64,000 nt of DNA, from NCBI GenBank assembly GCA_964539655.1, contig CAZIJH010000004.1, positions 14,925 through 78,924 on the forward strand, read 5' to 3'. The notes beneath the pieces were generated by a model that was not told the origin of the DNA, did not search any database, and saw only the letters and a list, made by a program, of their open reading frames with translations. This stretch comes from an uncultured archaeon. Lineage in GTDB: Archaea > Aenigmatarchaeota > Aenigmatarchaeia > CG10238-14 > SCSR01. This document shows positions 768 through 53,023 of the stretch, piece after piece (the stretch's first letter is position 1; each line of letters opens with the position of its first letter). Position numbers and translations under genes: made by a program.

Positions 768-1316
768 TCATTTGGCAGCAACGTAAATTTTTCTCGGCCA
801 CTCTCCTCTGTCTGCTGGATCGTAAGGCAGTCCGCCACCTATGAAATGAGTTCTAACCTCGCACTTTTCAGCCGTTTCCAAGAGTGCCTTGTCAAACGAG
901 ACTATCGGCAACTTTTCATATTTGGCATGTAGGATCAATATTCTGTCAATCCTGCTTATCGGGTATTTTTCCAATTCTCTTCTCAGATCGCGTACGCCAA
1001 AATGATAATCGTTGTCGTGGTTCTGTTCGCAAGATACGAATCTGACAGAAGGATTGTCTAGCAAATTTTCCATTTTCTTTATATTTCCTCGTCTGTTAAG
1101 CAGTATGAGCTCCTGTAAATTTTCAGAATAGATTGTTTTCATCACGTTTGATTTCAGCCATTTTACGATTTTATTTCGGCTTATGTTCCAAAGAATGATT
1201 CGAGGTTCATTCAAGCCGTACATTATGACAGAAGTGTCGACTGCGTAGCCCTTTTCCAAATTTTTTTGGAGGGTCCTTGACAGTTTCGCTTTTTTCATCT
1301 CGCTGTAAATTGCCAT
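768..1316 (-). CDS. PIN-domain protein (putative nuclease)
   Basis: N-terminal VDTSVIM (first acidic residue) and C-terminal IVSFDKALLETAEK (the hhT/S-xD motif) are typical of PIN domains. Confidence 0.45.
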   Translation of the reverse strand: MAIYSEMKKAKLSRTLQKNLEKGYAVDTSVIMYGLNEPRIILWNISRNKIVKWLKSNVMKTIYSENLQELILLNRRGNIKKMENLLDNPSVRFVSCEQNHDNDYHFGVRDLRRELEKYPISRIDRILILHAKYEKLPIVSFDKALLETAEKCEVRTHFIGGGLPYDPADRGEWPRKIYVAAK

Positions 1317-19985: not shown

Positions 19986-20061
19986 ATATTGTCCCGCAAT
20001 ACAAACTCTAGTTTAGCTTAATCAAGGATATATTTATAGTAGGTCTTAACAATATTTTAGT

Positions 20062-21009
20062 ATGAGAATTATTTTGAAAAAAGGTAAGCAAAAAGAACTG
20101 ATTGATTTAACCAAATCAAAATTATCTTTATCATGGTCAGAATTGGGAAGGCTCCTTGGAATTAAACCCAATTATTTGAGTGGTGATTTGCGATTTGAAA
20201 ATGTCACAATCAGCGATCAATTATATAAAAATTTGTCAAGAATGAGCGATGTTAATTTTGATAATTTCATTGAAAAAAAAGTTCCTAACAATTGGGGGCG
20301 AATAAAAGGAGGGAAGTTATCTACTCATAGACAGCGTCCTCGAAAGTTACTCATTAAACAACATTCTAGTAATCTTGCAGAAGCTATTGGTATAATTTTA
20401 GGTGATGGTAGTTTGTATAACAATAAAAAACATGGAATCAACCAATTAGTTGTAACTGGCCATATCAAAAATGATCAAATATATTTGTCTAAATTTGTGA
20501 AGCCGCTTTTTGAAAATTTGTTTAATTTAAAATTTAGTATTAAAAAAGATAACAAAAAACATGTAATAAGAATTTACAGCCAAAAGAAAGATGTTTTATA
20601 TACTTTAGAAAAACTTGGCATACCGATTGGAAATAAAATAAAGAATGATGTTGGAATACCGAATTGGATATTTTCGTCAAAAGATTTCGTTAAATCATGC
20701 ATACGTGGTATTGTCGACACTGACGGTTCTGTATTCCCAATAACTGGAAGAAACTATACATATGTAGAAATTACATCCGCTTGCAAAAATTTAAGAAAAT
20801 CTATAGACCAAAGCATGAAAATAATTGGATTAAAAACATCCAAATGGACCAAAAATGGAACTCCAAAAATTTATATAGCAAACAAACGAGATATTTCTCG
20901 CTATTACAATGAAGTGGGATTTAATAACCCATATCATAAAAATAGATTTAAGCTCCTATCGTCTAGTCCGGTCAAACAAAGCCGAAAGGACGCCGGGCTT
21001 TCGATCTAA
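20062..21009 (+). CDS. LAGLIDADG homing endonuclease, free-standing, with an N-terminal HTH-like domain
   Basis: Two LAGLIDADG motifs (AIGIILGDGSLY, IRGIVDTDGSVF) spaced ~110 aa apart. The ORF has no stop before 21009, so its last ~19 codons overlap the 5' part of the downstream tRNA. Confidence 0.7.
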   Translation: MRIILKKGKQKELIDLTKSKLSLSWSELGRLLGIKPNYLSGDLRFENVTISDQLYKNLSRMSDVNFDNFIEKKVPNNWGRIKGGKLSTHRQRPRKLLIKQHSSNLAEAIGIILGDGSLYNNKKHGINQLVVTGHIKNDQIYLSKFVKPLFENLFNLKFSIKKDNKKHVIRIYSQKKDVLYTLEKLGIPIGNKIKNDVGIPNWIFSSKDFVKSCIRGIVDTDGSVFPITGRNYTYVEITSACKNLRKSIDQSMKIIGLKTSKWTKNGTPKIYIANKRDISRYYNEVGFNNPYHKNRFKLLSSSPVKQSRKDAGLSI

Positions 21010-21079
21010 AAGCGAAAGCTTCGAAAAAAAAGATGAGAGAAGAAATCCGGCAACCCGGGTTCAAATCCCGGTGGGAGCA
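20952..21079 (+). tRNA. tRNA-Glu (anticodon UUC) with a ~41-nt anticodon-loop intron and extra nucleotides in the D-arm region
   Basis: Acceptor GCTCCTA/TGGGAGC+A, D-loop AGTCCGGTCAA, anticodon stem-loop CCGGG-CTTTCGA, then an insertion 21004-21044, then TCCGG, variable CAAC, and T-arm CCGGG-TTCAAAT-CCCGG. A T-run follows. About 12 extra nt between the D-loop and the anticodon stem are unexplained (possibly a second non-canonical intron). Confidence 0.55.
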
Positions 21080-21110
21080 TTTTTTATTCTTTTGCTAATA
21101 ATAGGATGTT

Positions 21111-21788
21111 ATGATAAAAGTTGTAATTAATGCGGACGACTTTGGATACAGCAGAATTTTCAATGCCAAAATTTTGGATTTGTTACAGAGAGGTGCAATT
21201 AAATCCGCGACTATATTAGTAAACAGGATTGATGACAAACAGCAGGATGTTTCGCAACTCATTTCCGTTCACAAAAATTTGGATGTCGGCATTGGAATCG
21301 AGTACGAATTGACAAGAAAAGAATCTGCAACTGAAGATATAGATGCTCAATATAAGAAATTTATTTCAGTTTTCGGTTTTTCTCCGTCGCATTTCAGCAT
21401 GCACTTGCCAAAAGTTTTGAGAGACAGGCATGACAGCTCTGAAATAATAAAAAGTCTGGCGTATAAAATTCAGAAATTTGCGCAAATTCAAAACATACCG
21501 ATGGATAACGACGGACCTTATGGAATTGAAGATTGGGGAAAAGTTCGCACAACAACTGTGCCCATTTTCATGGGAACTTACCATAATTTTAAAGAAATAC
21601 AAAATTACTTTGAAAAAATGAAAAACGGGAAAAGTTATGAAATTATTTTTCATCCAGGCGAGTACGATCCTGTAAATACATCCAGCCTTAATGCCGAACG
21701 GAAAAATGATTATGACAATATTTTGAGATTGCAGGAATGGCTTAAACCGCGCAAAGATATACAAATTATAAGTTTTCTGAATTTGTAA
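21111..21788 (+). CDS. ChbG/YdjC-family carbohydrate deacetylase
   Basis: The N-terminal INADDFG hallmark plus HPGEYD. Confidence 0.75.
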   Translation: MIKVVINADDFGYSRIFNAKILDLLQRGAIKSATILVNRIDDKQQDVSQLISVHKNLDVGIGIEYELTRKESATEDIDAQYKKFISVFGFSPSHFSMHLPKVLRDRHDSSEIIKSLAYKIQKFAQIQNIPMDNDGPYGIEDWGKVRTTTVPIFMGTYHNFKEIQNYFEKMKNGKSYEIIFHPGEYDPVNTSSLNAERKNDYDNILRLQEWLKPRKDIQIISFLNL

Positions 21789-29310: not shown

Positions 29311-29318
29311 GCGGGGGT
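29311..29318 (+). repeat. 8-nt copy (gcgggggt) of the 5' end of the downstream tRNA-Leu
   Basis: Identical to 30041-30048. Together they flank the ~720-bp LAGLIDADG gene segment. Confidence 0.4.
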
Positions 29319-29356
29319 ATAACAATTTAAATAATAAAAAAATAATAATAAACAAT

Positions 29357-30037
29357 ATGAATTTTCAAAAAACTGCAGAACTTGCAGAATTTGTGGCTGA
29401 CATTACCGGTGATGGTCATTTGCAATTTAATGAACATCGAGGAAATATTCAATTTACTTCAAAAAATCTATTTTCAATTAAAAATTTTAGAAAACTTTGT
29501 AAAAATTTGTTTGATACCGATACAAAATTAATGAAAATAAAGAAAGACGGCAAATCATTTACGCTTCGATATAGAACATATTTTTCTTCTTTTGCAATTG
29601 CTAGTGAATTAGTAAAATTAGGAGTTCCATTTGGGAACAAAACGAACAAAATTTTTAGTATACCCAATTGGATTTTGAAAGGAAATTCAGAACTCAAGAA
29701 AGCATATTTACGCGCATTCTATACTTGTGAAGGATCAGTTTATTGTACTAAAAATAAAGATAAACTGAGATGGAGGATAGAATTAGAACAATATAAAAAT
29801 GAAAAATTAAAACATAGAGGGAAAATTTTTATGAACCAGATAAAACATTTACTTGGAGATTTTGATGTTATAACATCACCAGTCAGATTTGGAAAGAAAC
29901 AGAAAAGAAAAGACGGATCATCTTCAATTGCATTGAAAATTGATATCGAAAAGTCATCATTTGAAAAATTTGCTAATAACATAGGGTTTAACGATAAGTT
30001 TAAGACTCAAAAATTACTAACTGCAATTGCAGAATAA
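29357..30037 (+). CDS. LAGLIDADG homing endonuclease, free-standing (paralogue of 20062..21009)
   Basis: Motifs VADITGDGHLQ and AFYTCEGSVY. The stop is 3 nt before tRNA-Leu. Confidence 0.7.
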   Translation: MNFQKTAELAEFVADITGDGHLQFNEHRGNIQFTSKNLFSIKNFRKLCKNLFDTDTKLMKIKKDGKSFTLRYRTYFSSFAIASELVKLGVPFGNKTNKIFSIPNWILKGNSELKKAYLRAFYTCEGSVYCTKNKDKLRWRIELEQYKNEKLKHRGKIFMNQIKHLLGDFDVITSPVRFGKKQKRKDGSSSIALKIDIEKSSFEKFANNIGFNDKFKTQKLLTAIAE

Positions 30038-30040
30038 TAT

Positions 30041-30126
30041 GCGGGGGTCAGATAGCCCGGTCAATTCTGCTGGCTTGAGGTGCCAGTCCTTTAGTAGGTA
30101 CGCGAGTTCGAATCTCGCCCCCCGCA
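30041..30126 (+). tRNA. tRNA-Leu (anticodon GAG), long variable arm
   Basis: GCGGGGG...CTGGC-TTGAGGT-GCCAG, a 14-nt variable arm, T-arm GCGAG-TTCGAAT-CTCGC, and acceptor CCCCCGC+A. Confidence 0.8.
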
Positions 30127-30144
30127 CTCTTATTTTCCGAAAAT

Positions 30145-52869: not shown

Positions 52870-52927
52870 CTGTAACAGAGACTTGTTAAAGCTTATAAGC
52901 TTAACTATATTTCAATTCAAAAATTTG

Positions 52928-53023
52928 CGCCCAGGATGGGATTTGAACCCACAAGAGCTTGCGCTCGCAGCGTTTCAGTAAATTTTTCCAGCGCTGTGCC
53001 ATACCGGGTTAGGCGACCTGGGC
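52928..53023 (-). tRNA. tRNA-Ser (anticodon GGA) with a ~12-nt anticodon-loop intron
   Basis: Reverse complement GCCCAGG...CAGCG-CTGGAA-[AAATTTACTGAA]-A-CGCTG, a long variable arm CGAGCGCAAGCTCTT, T-arm GTGGG-TTCAAAT-CCCAT, and acceptor CCTGGGC+G. Confidence 0.6.

Follow-up and report, generated by a model that had tools for sequence, protein, structure and literature searches.

In fungal mitochondria, the open reading frame (ORF) of a LAGLIDADG or GIY-YIG endonuclease can carry along a duplicate of the terminus of the gene that it invades, as described for the mORFs of Allomyces atp6 and of Glomus atp6, atp9, cox2 and nad3 (PMC3630166). The host gene is rebuilt from the imported piece, the native piece is displaced and decays, and the two pieces differ in sequence (PMC3630166). 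F-CphI of cyanophage S-PM2 is a free-standing endonuclease encoded beside psbA, whose intron prevents self-cleavage, and it gives this intron mobility (PMC6083498). SegB of T4 is presented as a free-standing homing endonuclease within a tRNA cluster, with a site that includes a conserved tRNA motif, and as driving the inheritance of itself and of adjacent tRNA genes (PMC2330249). At Caldiarchaeum's gene for tRNA-Thr(GGU), a 5' fragment lies upstream, an element gene shares its strand with the reconstituted tRNA beside it and an extra intron has been gained at position 24/25; the authors propose that this intron came with the element and blocks further invasion (PMC3293823). Here we analyse a stretch of 64,000 nucleotides (nt) from an uncultured Aenigmatarchaeota archaeon (contig CAZIJH010000004.1 of assembly GCA_964539655.1, positions 14,925 to 78,924; hereafter the window), in which the ORF of a LAGLIDADG endonuclease of 315 amino acids (aa; 20062..21009, + strand, ATG to TAA) runs into a tRNA-Glu(UUC) gene (20952..21079, + strand).

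The origin of non-canonical introns and of split or fragmented tRNA genes in archaea is an old question, and mobile elements have been suspected from a few cases. Comparison of the window with related loci makes it probable that the 315-aa ORF is the endonuclease gene of a mobile, free-standing homing cassette of ~1 kb that targets tRNA genes and restores their 5' end. The cassette would have inserted in the D-arm region (~nt 21-26) of the tRNA-Glu(UUC) gene, bringing with it a TATA promoter, the LAGLIDADG ORF and a replacement tRNA 5' part fused to the 3' end of the ORF. An intact tRNA would have been rebuilt downstream of the ORF, and the original 5' part and the old promoter would remain upstream as a functionless, decaying remnant. 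At the level of sequence, the comparison brings out an architecture that is conserved throughout the family, polymorphism for the insertion among relatives, a duplicated tRNA 5' part, a promoter that appears to be the cassette's own, and an association with introns that match the insertion site.

The endonuclease ORF and its junction with tRNA genes

Homologues of ~300 aa are numerous in DPANN archaea, including Woese-, Pace-, Nano-, Aenigm-, Iain- and Micrarchaeota, and a pattern scan of one genome per GTDB species gave at least 596 candidate stretches that were confirmed as relatives. A first-pass annotation of the window, made from its sequence, had proposed surveying how often such endonucleases adjoin tRNA genes in related genomes. 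We examined 80 related DPANN loci, the Glu/Gln-type set, in 79 of which a tRNA start was identified. The ORF stop was found inside the tRNA in 69 of the 79 loci, and exactly at nt 1 in 4 more. It lay 15 nt into the tRNA in 34 loci (UAG at nt 13-15) and 10 nt into it in 21 (UAG at nt 8-10), the commonest stop codon thus being the tRNA's own UAG. The family lacks its own stop codon, which is why its ORFs read into the rebuilt tRNA, and the protein ends of most members ('APVV', 'SPVV', 'APIV' or 'SSSPVK') are the translated tRNA 5' ends GCUCCGGUGGUGUAG (Glu) and AGCCCCGUGGUGUAG (Gln). Using a cloverleaf parser that tolerates introns in the D-loop and the anticodon loop, we resolved 70 abutting tRNAs in the 80 loci, and all but two of them were Glu(UUC/CUC) or Gln(UUG/CUG). 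In a neighbour-joining tree of 81 proteins, the clades matched the tRNA isoacceptor: GlnCUG, GlnUUG, GluCUC, GluUUC and two Asp-like groups.

The ORF in the window uses the second of these frames, and its tRNA has U8-C9-G10 where relatives have the in-frame stop U8-A9-G10. Since nt 8-10 read UCG and the usual stop is missing, the overlap runs on for 58 nt to a UAA in an intron and is the largest of the set. Exon 1 of the tRNA accounts for 24 nt of it, intron 1 for 12, exon 2 for 16 and the beginning of intron 2 for the last 6. The coordinates thus bear out the first-pass annotation, according to which the ORF has no stop until 21009 and takes its last ~19 codons from nt 1-58 of the tRNA gene. 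The 19-codon tail looks like incidental read-through.

The protein is predicted to consist of an XRE-like helix-turn-helix (HTH) domain (aa 1-80), a linker (aa 81-100), a two-domain LAGLIDADG core (aa 100-296) and the tRNA-encoded tail (aa 297-315). Pfam assigned LAGLIDADG_3 to aa 209-286 (E=1.9e-9, above the cut-off) and, weakly, LAGLIDADG_2 to aa 109-182; the two matches indicate a monomeric two-domain enzyme. We judged the conservation of catalytic residues in an alignment of 34 proteins, in which D115 of motif 1 (..ILGDGS) was invariant and D221 of motif 2 (..VDTDGS) nearly so (at least 90%). The AlphaFold2 model (mean predicted local distance difference test score, pLDDT, 92.3) showed the tandem alpha-beta-beta-alpha-beta-beta-alpha fold of LAGLIDADG enzymes, and its tRNA-encoded tail was modelled as disordered (pLDDT ~51). 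The top Foldseek matches were I-Tsp061I (4.9e-10), PI-PfuI, the Tli VMA intein endonuclease and I-DmoI (target-normalised TM ~0.72), with E values from 5e-10 to 2e-7. The closest solved structures are therefore archaeal homing endonucleases encoded in introns or inteins, and a sequence-based search of the PDB agreed; WhiA and LAGLIDADG maturases were also among the structural neighbours. The N-terminal ~80 aa were modelled with confidence as a separate domain, and its Foldseek neighbours were all HTH proteins of the XRE/Cro/lambda-repressor type, with weak E values (0.015-0.2) and a root mean square deviation of ~2 A over ~58 residues. Pfam gave no match for the N-terminal 95 aa even at E values up to 10. 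In the model, the added XRE-type HTH domain fits recognition of an extended DNA site. The first-pass annotation had noted an extra HTH-like domain at the N terminus that is missing from a paralogue elsewhere in the window, and both the structural search and the alignment agree with it (~80 aa).

The G+C content (GC) of the 315-aa ORF is 29-31%, compared with a median of 44.7% for the ORFs of the window and 27.9% for the paralogue. These two LAGLIDADG ORFs are the two lowest-GC genes of the window and fall on those 900-nt segments of the 64 kb in which GC is lowest. A search of IMG/VR found only distant relatives (25-33% identity) and no sign of a virus-borne cassette. The first-pass annotation had also considered that the ORF might be a decayed pseudogene. 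This fails on the comparison with relatives: 78 of 81 family ORFs are at least 190 aa long, and the catalytic acidic residues of both motifs are conserved in the 34-protein alignment. About four family ORFs are truncated. The ORFs of L036, L056, L070 and L075 appear shortened (49-222 aa, with automated starts) next to intact tRNAs, and these loci are candidates for decaying cassettes.

The tRNA-Glu(UUC) gene of the window is real and carries two predicted introns. Exon 1 (20952..20975, 24 nt, + strand) holds nt 1-21, that is, the 5' strands of the acceptor stem and the D-stem and the D-loop, and would be the replacement 5' part borne by the cassette. Directly after it, the D-loop is interrupted by a mini-intron of 12 nt (20976..20987, position ~21/22), whose boundaries are ambiguous by 1-2 nt because of flanking A residues. 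Exon 2 (20988..21003, 16 nt) holds the 3' strand of the D-stem, the 5' strand of the anticodon stem and the anticodon UUC. A 41-nt intron at the canonical position 37/38 of the anticodon loop comes next (21004..21044; i(41,41) in ARAGORN with the D-loop insert removed), and the TAA of the ORF (21007..21009) sits within it. Exon 3 (21045..21079) contains the 3' strand of the anticodon stem, the variable loop, the T-arm, the 3' acceptor strand and the discriminator A, and a T-run follows directly (21080..21085). All of these parts are on the + strand.

The intact locus was called neither by ARAGORN, with or without its intron search, nor by Rfam, at gathering or E-value thresholds; these misses reflect the second (D-loop) intron and not the absence of a tRNA. 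When the 12-nt insert was removed, ARAGORN reported tRNA-Glu(UUC) with a 41-nt anticodon-loop intron, and removal of both inserts left a clean, standard 75-nt cloverleaf. The unspliced 128-nt precursor also folds as a cloverleaf from which both inserts are extruded. In the 41-nt intron the bulge-helix-bulge looks relaxed by eye, with three of four central pairs. A 12-nt insert homologous to that of the window is present in L008, with a covarying 4-bp helix (CGGU/GCCG in the window, CGGU/ACCG in L008). Thus the tRNA-Glu of the first-pass annotation stands, as a gene with two introns (12 and 41 nt) and not one.

Displaced tRNA 5' ends, promoters and empty sites

The usual order of a locus is the old tRNA promoter, a decaying copy of the tRNA 5' part from nt 1 to ~25, a TATA box, the ORF and the complete tRNA. 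In the 95 nt listed upstream of the ORFs, a tRNA-like fragment such as AGCCCCATAGTNNAGTGGTCAA was found at about -60..-37 from the ATG, followed by the TATA box. We aligned nt 1-22 of each tRNA with the region -85..-25 from the ORF start in 77 loci and compared the matches with 616 control windows. The match was above the 99th percentile in 32 of the 77 loci and above the 95th in 42, and L002 contains an exact copy of the tRNA 5' part (24 of 24 nt). In most loci the upstream copy is degenerate, above all in its acceptor strand. At positions that distinguish the two copies, the pairing partners in the D-stem and the 3' acceptor strand fit the downstream one. Hence it is the downstream copy that functions, and the one upstream is a relic. 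At one pair of loci, L006 and L007, the ORF tails and tRNA 5' sequences are identical and the upstream flanks diverge fully ~12-17 nt before the ATG, which could mean either that the left border was rearranged or that the unit moved into a new context.

In 48% of 81 loci a TATA-like octamer begins exactly at -29 relative to the ATG; for starts at -32..-27 the share is ~72%, against a background of at most ~5% per position. Such a sharp peak at -29 points to a promoter of the cassette's own and to a nearly leaderless mRNA. Of the 17 complete remnants, 71% have another TATA-like octamer 26-40 nt ahead of their nt 1, which is predicted to be the original tRNA promoter. The rebuilt tRNA could be transcribed by read-through from the cassette promoter or the old tRNA promoter, or else from TATA-like octamers in the last codons of the ORF.

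The same parts can be traced in the window. We built a profile from 32 related upstream regions and searched it against the whole window with nhmmer; its first match was the true 5' end of the tRNA (E=0.0026) and its second, a weak one (E=0.25), spanned 20009..20064 from end to end of the profile, up to the ATG. Within this weak match, TAGTTTAGCttAATCAAGGA (20009..20028, + strand) would be a degenerate remnant of the original tRNA-Glu 5' part, corresponding to ~nt 13-24 of the tRNA, with no intron at 21/22; its 'TCAAGGA' equals nt 21-27 of the spliced tRNA. The core of the predicted cassette TATA box, TTTATA (20033..20038, + strand), starts 29 nt before the ATG. Inside the ORF, TTTAATAA (20920..20927, + strand) falls within the codons of a conserved GFNN motif, at -32..-25 from nt 1 of the tRNA. 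Its geometry is that of the TATA position ahead of the remnant tRNA copies in relatives, in a region that is AT-rich, and we infer from this that it may act as an internal tRNA promoter.

Loci with and without the insertion were found among the relatives. In L040, an empty site, a spacer of 40 nt that holds a promoter separates the tRNA-Gln from a tRNA-Glu(CUC) that is intact and has no cassette. L050, a filled one, has the homologous promoter and nt 1-25 of the tRNA, followed by an insertion of ~955 nt with a TATA box, the ORF and a new 5' part; the tRNA then resumes, and its remaining portion contains the homologous canonical intron of 95 nt. Compared by eye, the L050 remnant equals the L040 allele over 25 nt, and the rebuilt 5' part differs from it at 4 positions. 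The 3' acceptor strand of L050 matches the rebuilt part, and the downstream tRNA therefore appears to be of the donor type. More generally, the gap in tRNA-Gln/tRNA-Glu tandems is 3, 9 or 40 nt without a cassette and ~1 kb with one, so that presence at this conserved site is optional in relatives. The long tRNA-Gln/tRNA-Glu gaps of L035, L039, L054, L062 and L067 contain other genes, and neither tblastn nor the family hidden Markov model (HMM) found a family member or remnant in them. The duplicated end of the host gene, with one functional and one displaced copy, is clear in relatives, weak at the tRNA-Glu of the window and exact over 8 nt at a second site in the window, described below. That the imported terminus is unlike the native one is seen in the differences at L050 and, in the window, in an ORF GC of 28-31% against the median of 44.7%.

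Introns in the D-loop, at ~nt 21/22, are present in 27 of 66 cassette-linked tRNA-Glu/Gln genes and in 0 of 15 cassette-free ones in the same loci. At the site of the window's mini-intron, 28 relatives have longer introns of bulge-helix-bulge geometry. The introns fit the rule [GGYC]AA|...[GRCU]AN|, with a perfect 4-bp central helix in 15 of 29 compared with 13% in shifted controls. The relics, by comparison, are intron-less across 21/22 and end at ~nt 22-28 (L002, L011, L050, L009 and L021, and 'TCAAGGA' in the window). The D-loop intron thus occurs only in cassette-linked tRNAs, ~4 nt from the end of the remnant (21/22 versus ~25/26), and a like coincidence is seen at nt 8/9 of tRNA-Leu. LAGLIDADG enzymes make cuts staggered by 4 nt; that the spacing equals this stagger is suggestive only. 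The ORF is thus accompanied by the tRNA 5' part and often by the intron as well. Among cassette-linked, intron-less tRNA-Gln genes (L019-L080), the D-stems are unusually variable and often unlike the D-stem of the upstream relic, with compensatory pairs such as GUAU/AUAC, GAAU/GUUC, CUUC/GGAA, GCAC/GUGU, GGAC/GUCU and AGAU/AUCU. This variability could reflect escape from cleavage or mere diversity of lineages.

A second cassette at tRNA-Leu and other tRNA-linked relatives

The paralogue lies in a similar setting. Its remnant, GCGGGGGT (29311..29318), is an exact 8-nt copy of nt 1-8 of tRNA-Leu(GAG) and is followed by a predicted TATA box, TTTAAATA (29326..29333), 31 nt before the ATG. The LAGLIDADG ORF (29357..30037; Pfam LAGLIDADG_3, 1.2e-7) encodes 226 aa with no HTH domain and has the lowest GC of any ORF in the window (27.9%). 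An intron-less tRNA-Leu(GAG) (30041..30127) starts 3 nt after the ORF stop, and all four features are on the + strand. The two endonucleases are paralogues, as the first-pass annotation had recognized, although distant ones (BLASTP 32% identity over 132 aa, E=7e-14).

For this type we collected 15 homologues and 34 metagenome loci. D19 and E125 of the 226-aa protein were invariant in the Leu-type alignment. In the metagenomic relatives L085-L090 and L108, 'GCGGGGGTA..' and then a TATA box stand upstream of the ORF. In the Leu-type loci that we examined, the ORF ends in 'AIAG*' and is followed by a tRNA-Leu with an insert at nt 8/9. In the closest relatives this insert is a hairpin of ~23 nt that obeys the bulge-helix-bulge rule and sits where the relic ends (~nt 8-9); across L085-L101 and L108 its length is ~20-23 nt. 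Most tRNA-Leu genes in L085-L101 and L108 were not called by ARAGORN, even with its intron search. Since standard finders miss these and the tRNA-Glu of the window, the tRNA sets of DPANN archaea are probably under-annotated. From its layout, the tRNA-Leu family appears to be an independent replicate of the cassette design.

Several observations on individual loci stand beside these results. L090 (~1400-1500) has two tandem relic copies of GCGGGGGTA upstream of one ORF, as if two insertions had followed each other. The annotated N-terminal extensions of the Leu-type proteins P0153, P0154, P0157 and P0158 and of L098 ('..KINKCGGIVTIMDEW..') are translations of the relic and promoter region, so that their start codons have probably been placed too far upstream. 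A third, distant member in L050 (1027-2061, - strand; HMM E=4e-35) overlaps a tRNA-Thr(GGU) (976..1047) by 20 nt at its 3' end, and in several other loci a tRNA-Thr(GGU) lies on the opposite strand, 0.7-2.2 kb upstream of a tRNA-Gln cassette. Distant members of both families (L102, L103 and L109; L027 and L044; L112-L115) abut tRNA-Cys(GCA), Asp-like (GUC) tRNAs and uncalled tRNA-like sequences that start with GGGGAAAGCTCAGCTTGGATAGAGC. Judged by such neighbours, the tRNA-linked design may extend to many isoacceptors. Elsewhere in the window, tRNA-Ser(GGA) (52927-53023, - strand) has an anticodon-loop intron of 12-14 nt and no endonuclease ORF upstream, and tRNAs Ala-CGC, Ile-GAU and Thr-GGU likewise have no endonuclease ORF upstream.

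Competing explanations and comparison with known systems

A coincidence, in which an ordinary gene ahead of a tRNA happens to have no stop codon, would suit the 19-codon tail of the window, which is not conserved and is modelled as disordered. We give this reading a negligible probability: it is contradicted by the comparative data, in which the 69 ORFs that end inside a tRNA do so in one of matching type and in two preferred frames, and the tRNA-Leu family does likewise. A specific relationship between endonuclease and tRNA, which the first-pass annotation had preferred to coincidence, is borne out by the family-wide overlap, the isoacceptor-matched clades, the upstream copies, the pair of empty and filled sites and the tRNA-Leu replicate. 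Together, these comparisons support an arrangement far beyond chance. As to what the relationship might be, the same comparisons favour targeting of tRNA genes over the other option offered at the time, a borrowed tRNA promoter, which is not required because the cassette has a TATA box of its own. The whole unit could instead be a giant bulge-helix-bulge intron of ~1 kb, the upstream fragment being the true exon 1 and the promoter, ORF and second 5' copy all intronic, as in the archaeal rRNA introns that encode enzymes such as I-DmoI. Each of the 5' copies has a GGYC with which the helix at the 3' splice site could pair, a few loci such as L002 retain an intact upstream copy, and the closest structures are intron-encoded archaeal enzymes. 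We nevertheless regard this as extremely unlikely and rejected it, since the stems pair with the downstream copy: at the positions where the copies are unlike, D-stem and 3' acceptor strand agree with it and not with the upstream one, also in L098. In most loci the upstream copy is degenerate, especially in the acceptor strand, and the window remnant is far too decayed for an exon. Moreover, 39 of the 66 linked tRNAs have no D-loop intron and hence no 3' splice site. In the window itself the ORF starts 890 nt upstream of nt 1 of the tRNA, and the introns are only 12 and 41 nt long.

There are two further readings. In one, LAGLIDADG proteins were domesticated by the host and act on the neighbouring tRNA, as a WhiA-like DNA-binding regulator or as an RNA chaperone or maturase for unusual tRNA precursors, with overlap and co-transcription coupling their level to tRNA-Glu/Gln. 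The very wide distribution of the family, with its at least 596 confirmed stretches, the intactness of most ORFs, the clades that track the isoacceptor, the HTH domain, the WhiA and maturase neighbours in structure space and the associated unusual introns would all suit such a role. We consider it unlikely, given that both motifs keep their catalytic acidic residues; loss of these residues is common in WhiA and pure maturases. Also difficult to reconcile with domestication are the presence/absence polymorphism at orthologous tRNA loci, the duplicated tRNA 5' remnants in states from exact to decayed and the strongly deviant GC. Cassette-free tRNA-Glu/Gln genes in the same genomes manage without the ORF, and the removal of bulge-helix-bulge introns, which the splicing endonuclease cuts, does not depend on a maturase. 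In the other reading, the tRNA repeat is the attL/attR scar of an integrase element of the pNOB8/SSV type, and the LAGLIDADG gene is leftover cargo. Direct repeats of a tRNA end, a gene on the same strand beside a reconstituted tRNA and an extra intron near the junction are indeed the marks of the recombinase element at tRNA-Thr(GGU) (PMC3293823). This is nonetheless very unlikely here: the insert of ~1 kb has a LAGLIDADG gene as its single ORF in every locus examined, no integrase domain, whether of a tyrosine or a serine recombinase, was found, and the same minimal unit recurs in ~80 Glu/Gln loci and in the tRNA-Leu relatives.

The homing cassette remains the reading that we favour. From the sequence comparisons we infer DNA cleavage, its exact target, homing and intron-based immunity as follows. 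The enzyme would cut cassette-free copies of its tRNA gene near the D-arm (in the Leu type, near nt 8/9), and repair of the break from a cassette-bearing copy would transfer the cassette. Homology on both sides would come from the tRNA itself, on the left from the remnant and on the right from the tRNA body, and the unit would therefore be independent of genomic context. The rebuilt tRNA would escape cleavage because its site is interrupted, by a short bulge-helix-bulge intron in some loci and by changes in the D-stem in others.

Several points weigh against this proposal. The remnant in the window is only weakly detectable (E=0.25), and in direct alignment it is at noise level. TATA-like octamers inside the ORF are enriched at both -70..-52 and -40..-26, an enrichment that is confounded by, and inseparable from, coding constraint on the conserved 'YLKEIGF' and 'KHLKR' motifs. 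We found no empty allele of the window locus in a search by way of the downstream YdjC/ChbG-like gene, whose nearest relatives (50-58% identical) lie inside a 2-oxoacid dehydrogenase operon with no tRNA nearby and so offer no usable comparator. This gene (21111-21788), 3' of the tRNA-Glu, stands alone in the window, and in its nearest relatives it lies between E2 and E3. The association of D-loop introns with cassettes (Fisher p=0.0016) ignores shared ancestry and rests on a small cassette-free sample (15). With 39 of 66 cassette-linked tRNAs lacking the D-loop intron, immunity based on introns cannot be general. The prevalence of intact ORFs (78 of 81) and the match of clades to tRNA type across wide phylogenetic distances would suit a gene that was kept for long and may be useful as well as they suit an active selfish element, and homing presupposes exchange of DNA among DPANN cells.

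A broader idea, which we put forward as possible but tentative, is that such cassettes actively, and as a general mechanism, disrupt tRNA genes in archaea. The endonuclease, a bulge-helix-bulge intron at its cut site and a replacement 5' part would travel together, seeding non-canonical introns at set positions (21/22 in Glu/Gln, 8/9 in Leu) and orphan 5' fragments with live promoters. If so, the orphan fragments would be raw material for split and permuted tRNA genes, and the cassettes would offer a mechanism, the first that can be tested, by which protein-spliced tRNA introns are gained and spread; they may thus explain the origin of odd tRNA introns and of tRNA gene fragments. The family occurs in hundreds of DPANN species, and the agent, the insertion site, the displaced tRNA fragment and the site-matched intron can be read within one kilobase. 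Empty and filled alleles are available, which makes the question testable. If they cleave as we propose, the enzymes would also form a pool of natural meganucleases with specificities for tRNA genes.

In the literature that we searched, which was not complete and does not prove absence, LAGLIDADG cassettes built in this way were not described. In fold, the closest enzymes are I-Tsp061I, I-DmoI and PI-PfuI, which like the 315-aa protein are monomeric and two-domain; unlike theirs, the ORF described here lies outside any intron or intein, has a start codon and a predicted promoter of its own and encodes an extra N-terminal HTH domain. SegB differs in being a GIY-YIG enzyme of a phage that is directed at the T-psi-C region, and the abstract of its report describes neither duplication of a tRNA part nor an overlap of ORF and tRNA (PMC2330249). 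The Caldiarchaeum element carries a recombinase gene, and its movement is attributed to recombination at att sites, whereas the cassettes encode only a LAGLIDADG endonuclease. Similar to the collaborative homing of F-CphI, introns in the D-loop or at nt 8/9 are found only in cassette-linked tRNAs, approximately where the remnant ends. Unlike the psbA intron, which is a group I ribozyme, they are protein-spliced bulge-helix-bulge introns; the enzyme belongs to another family, many linked tRNAs have no intron, and the protective role is a proposal. The closest logic is that of the fungal mORFs, since the cassettes likewise import the end of a gene and displace the native one. They depart from mORFs in that the host gene codes for a tRNA and not for a protein and belongs to an archaeon and not to an organelle, replacement concerns the 5' end where in mORFs it concerns the 3' end, the overlap is with an RNA gene where a mORF is fused in frame to a coding sequence, and an intron that can be spliced out is often present at the junction.

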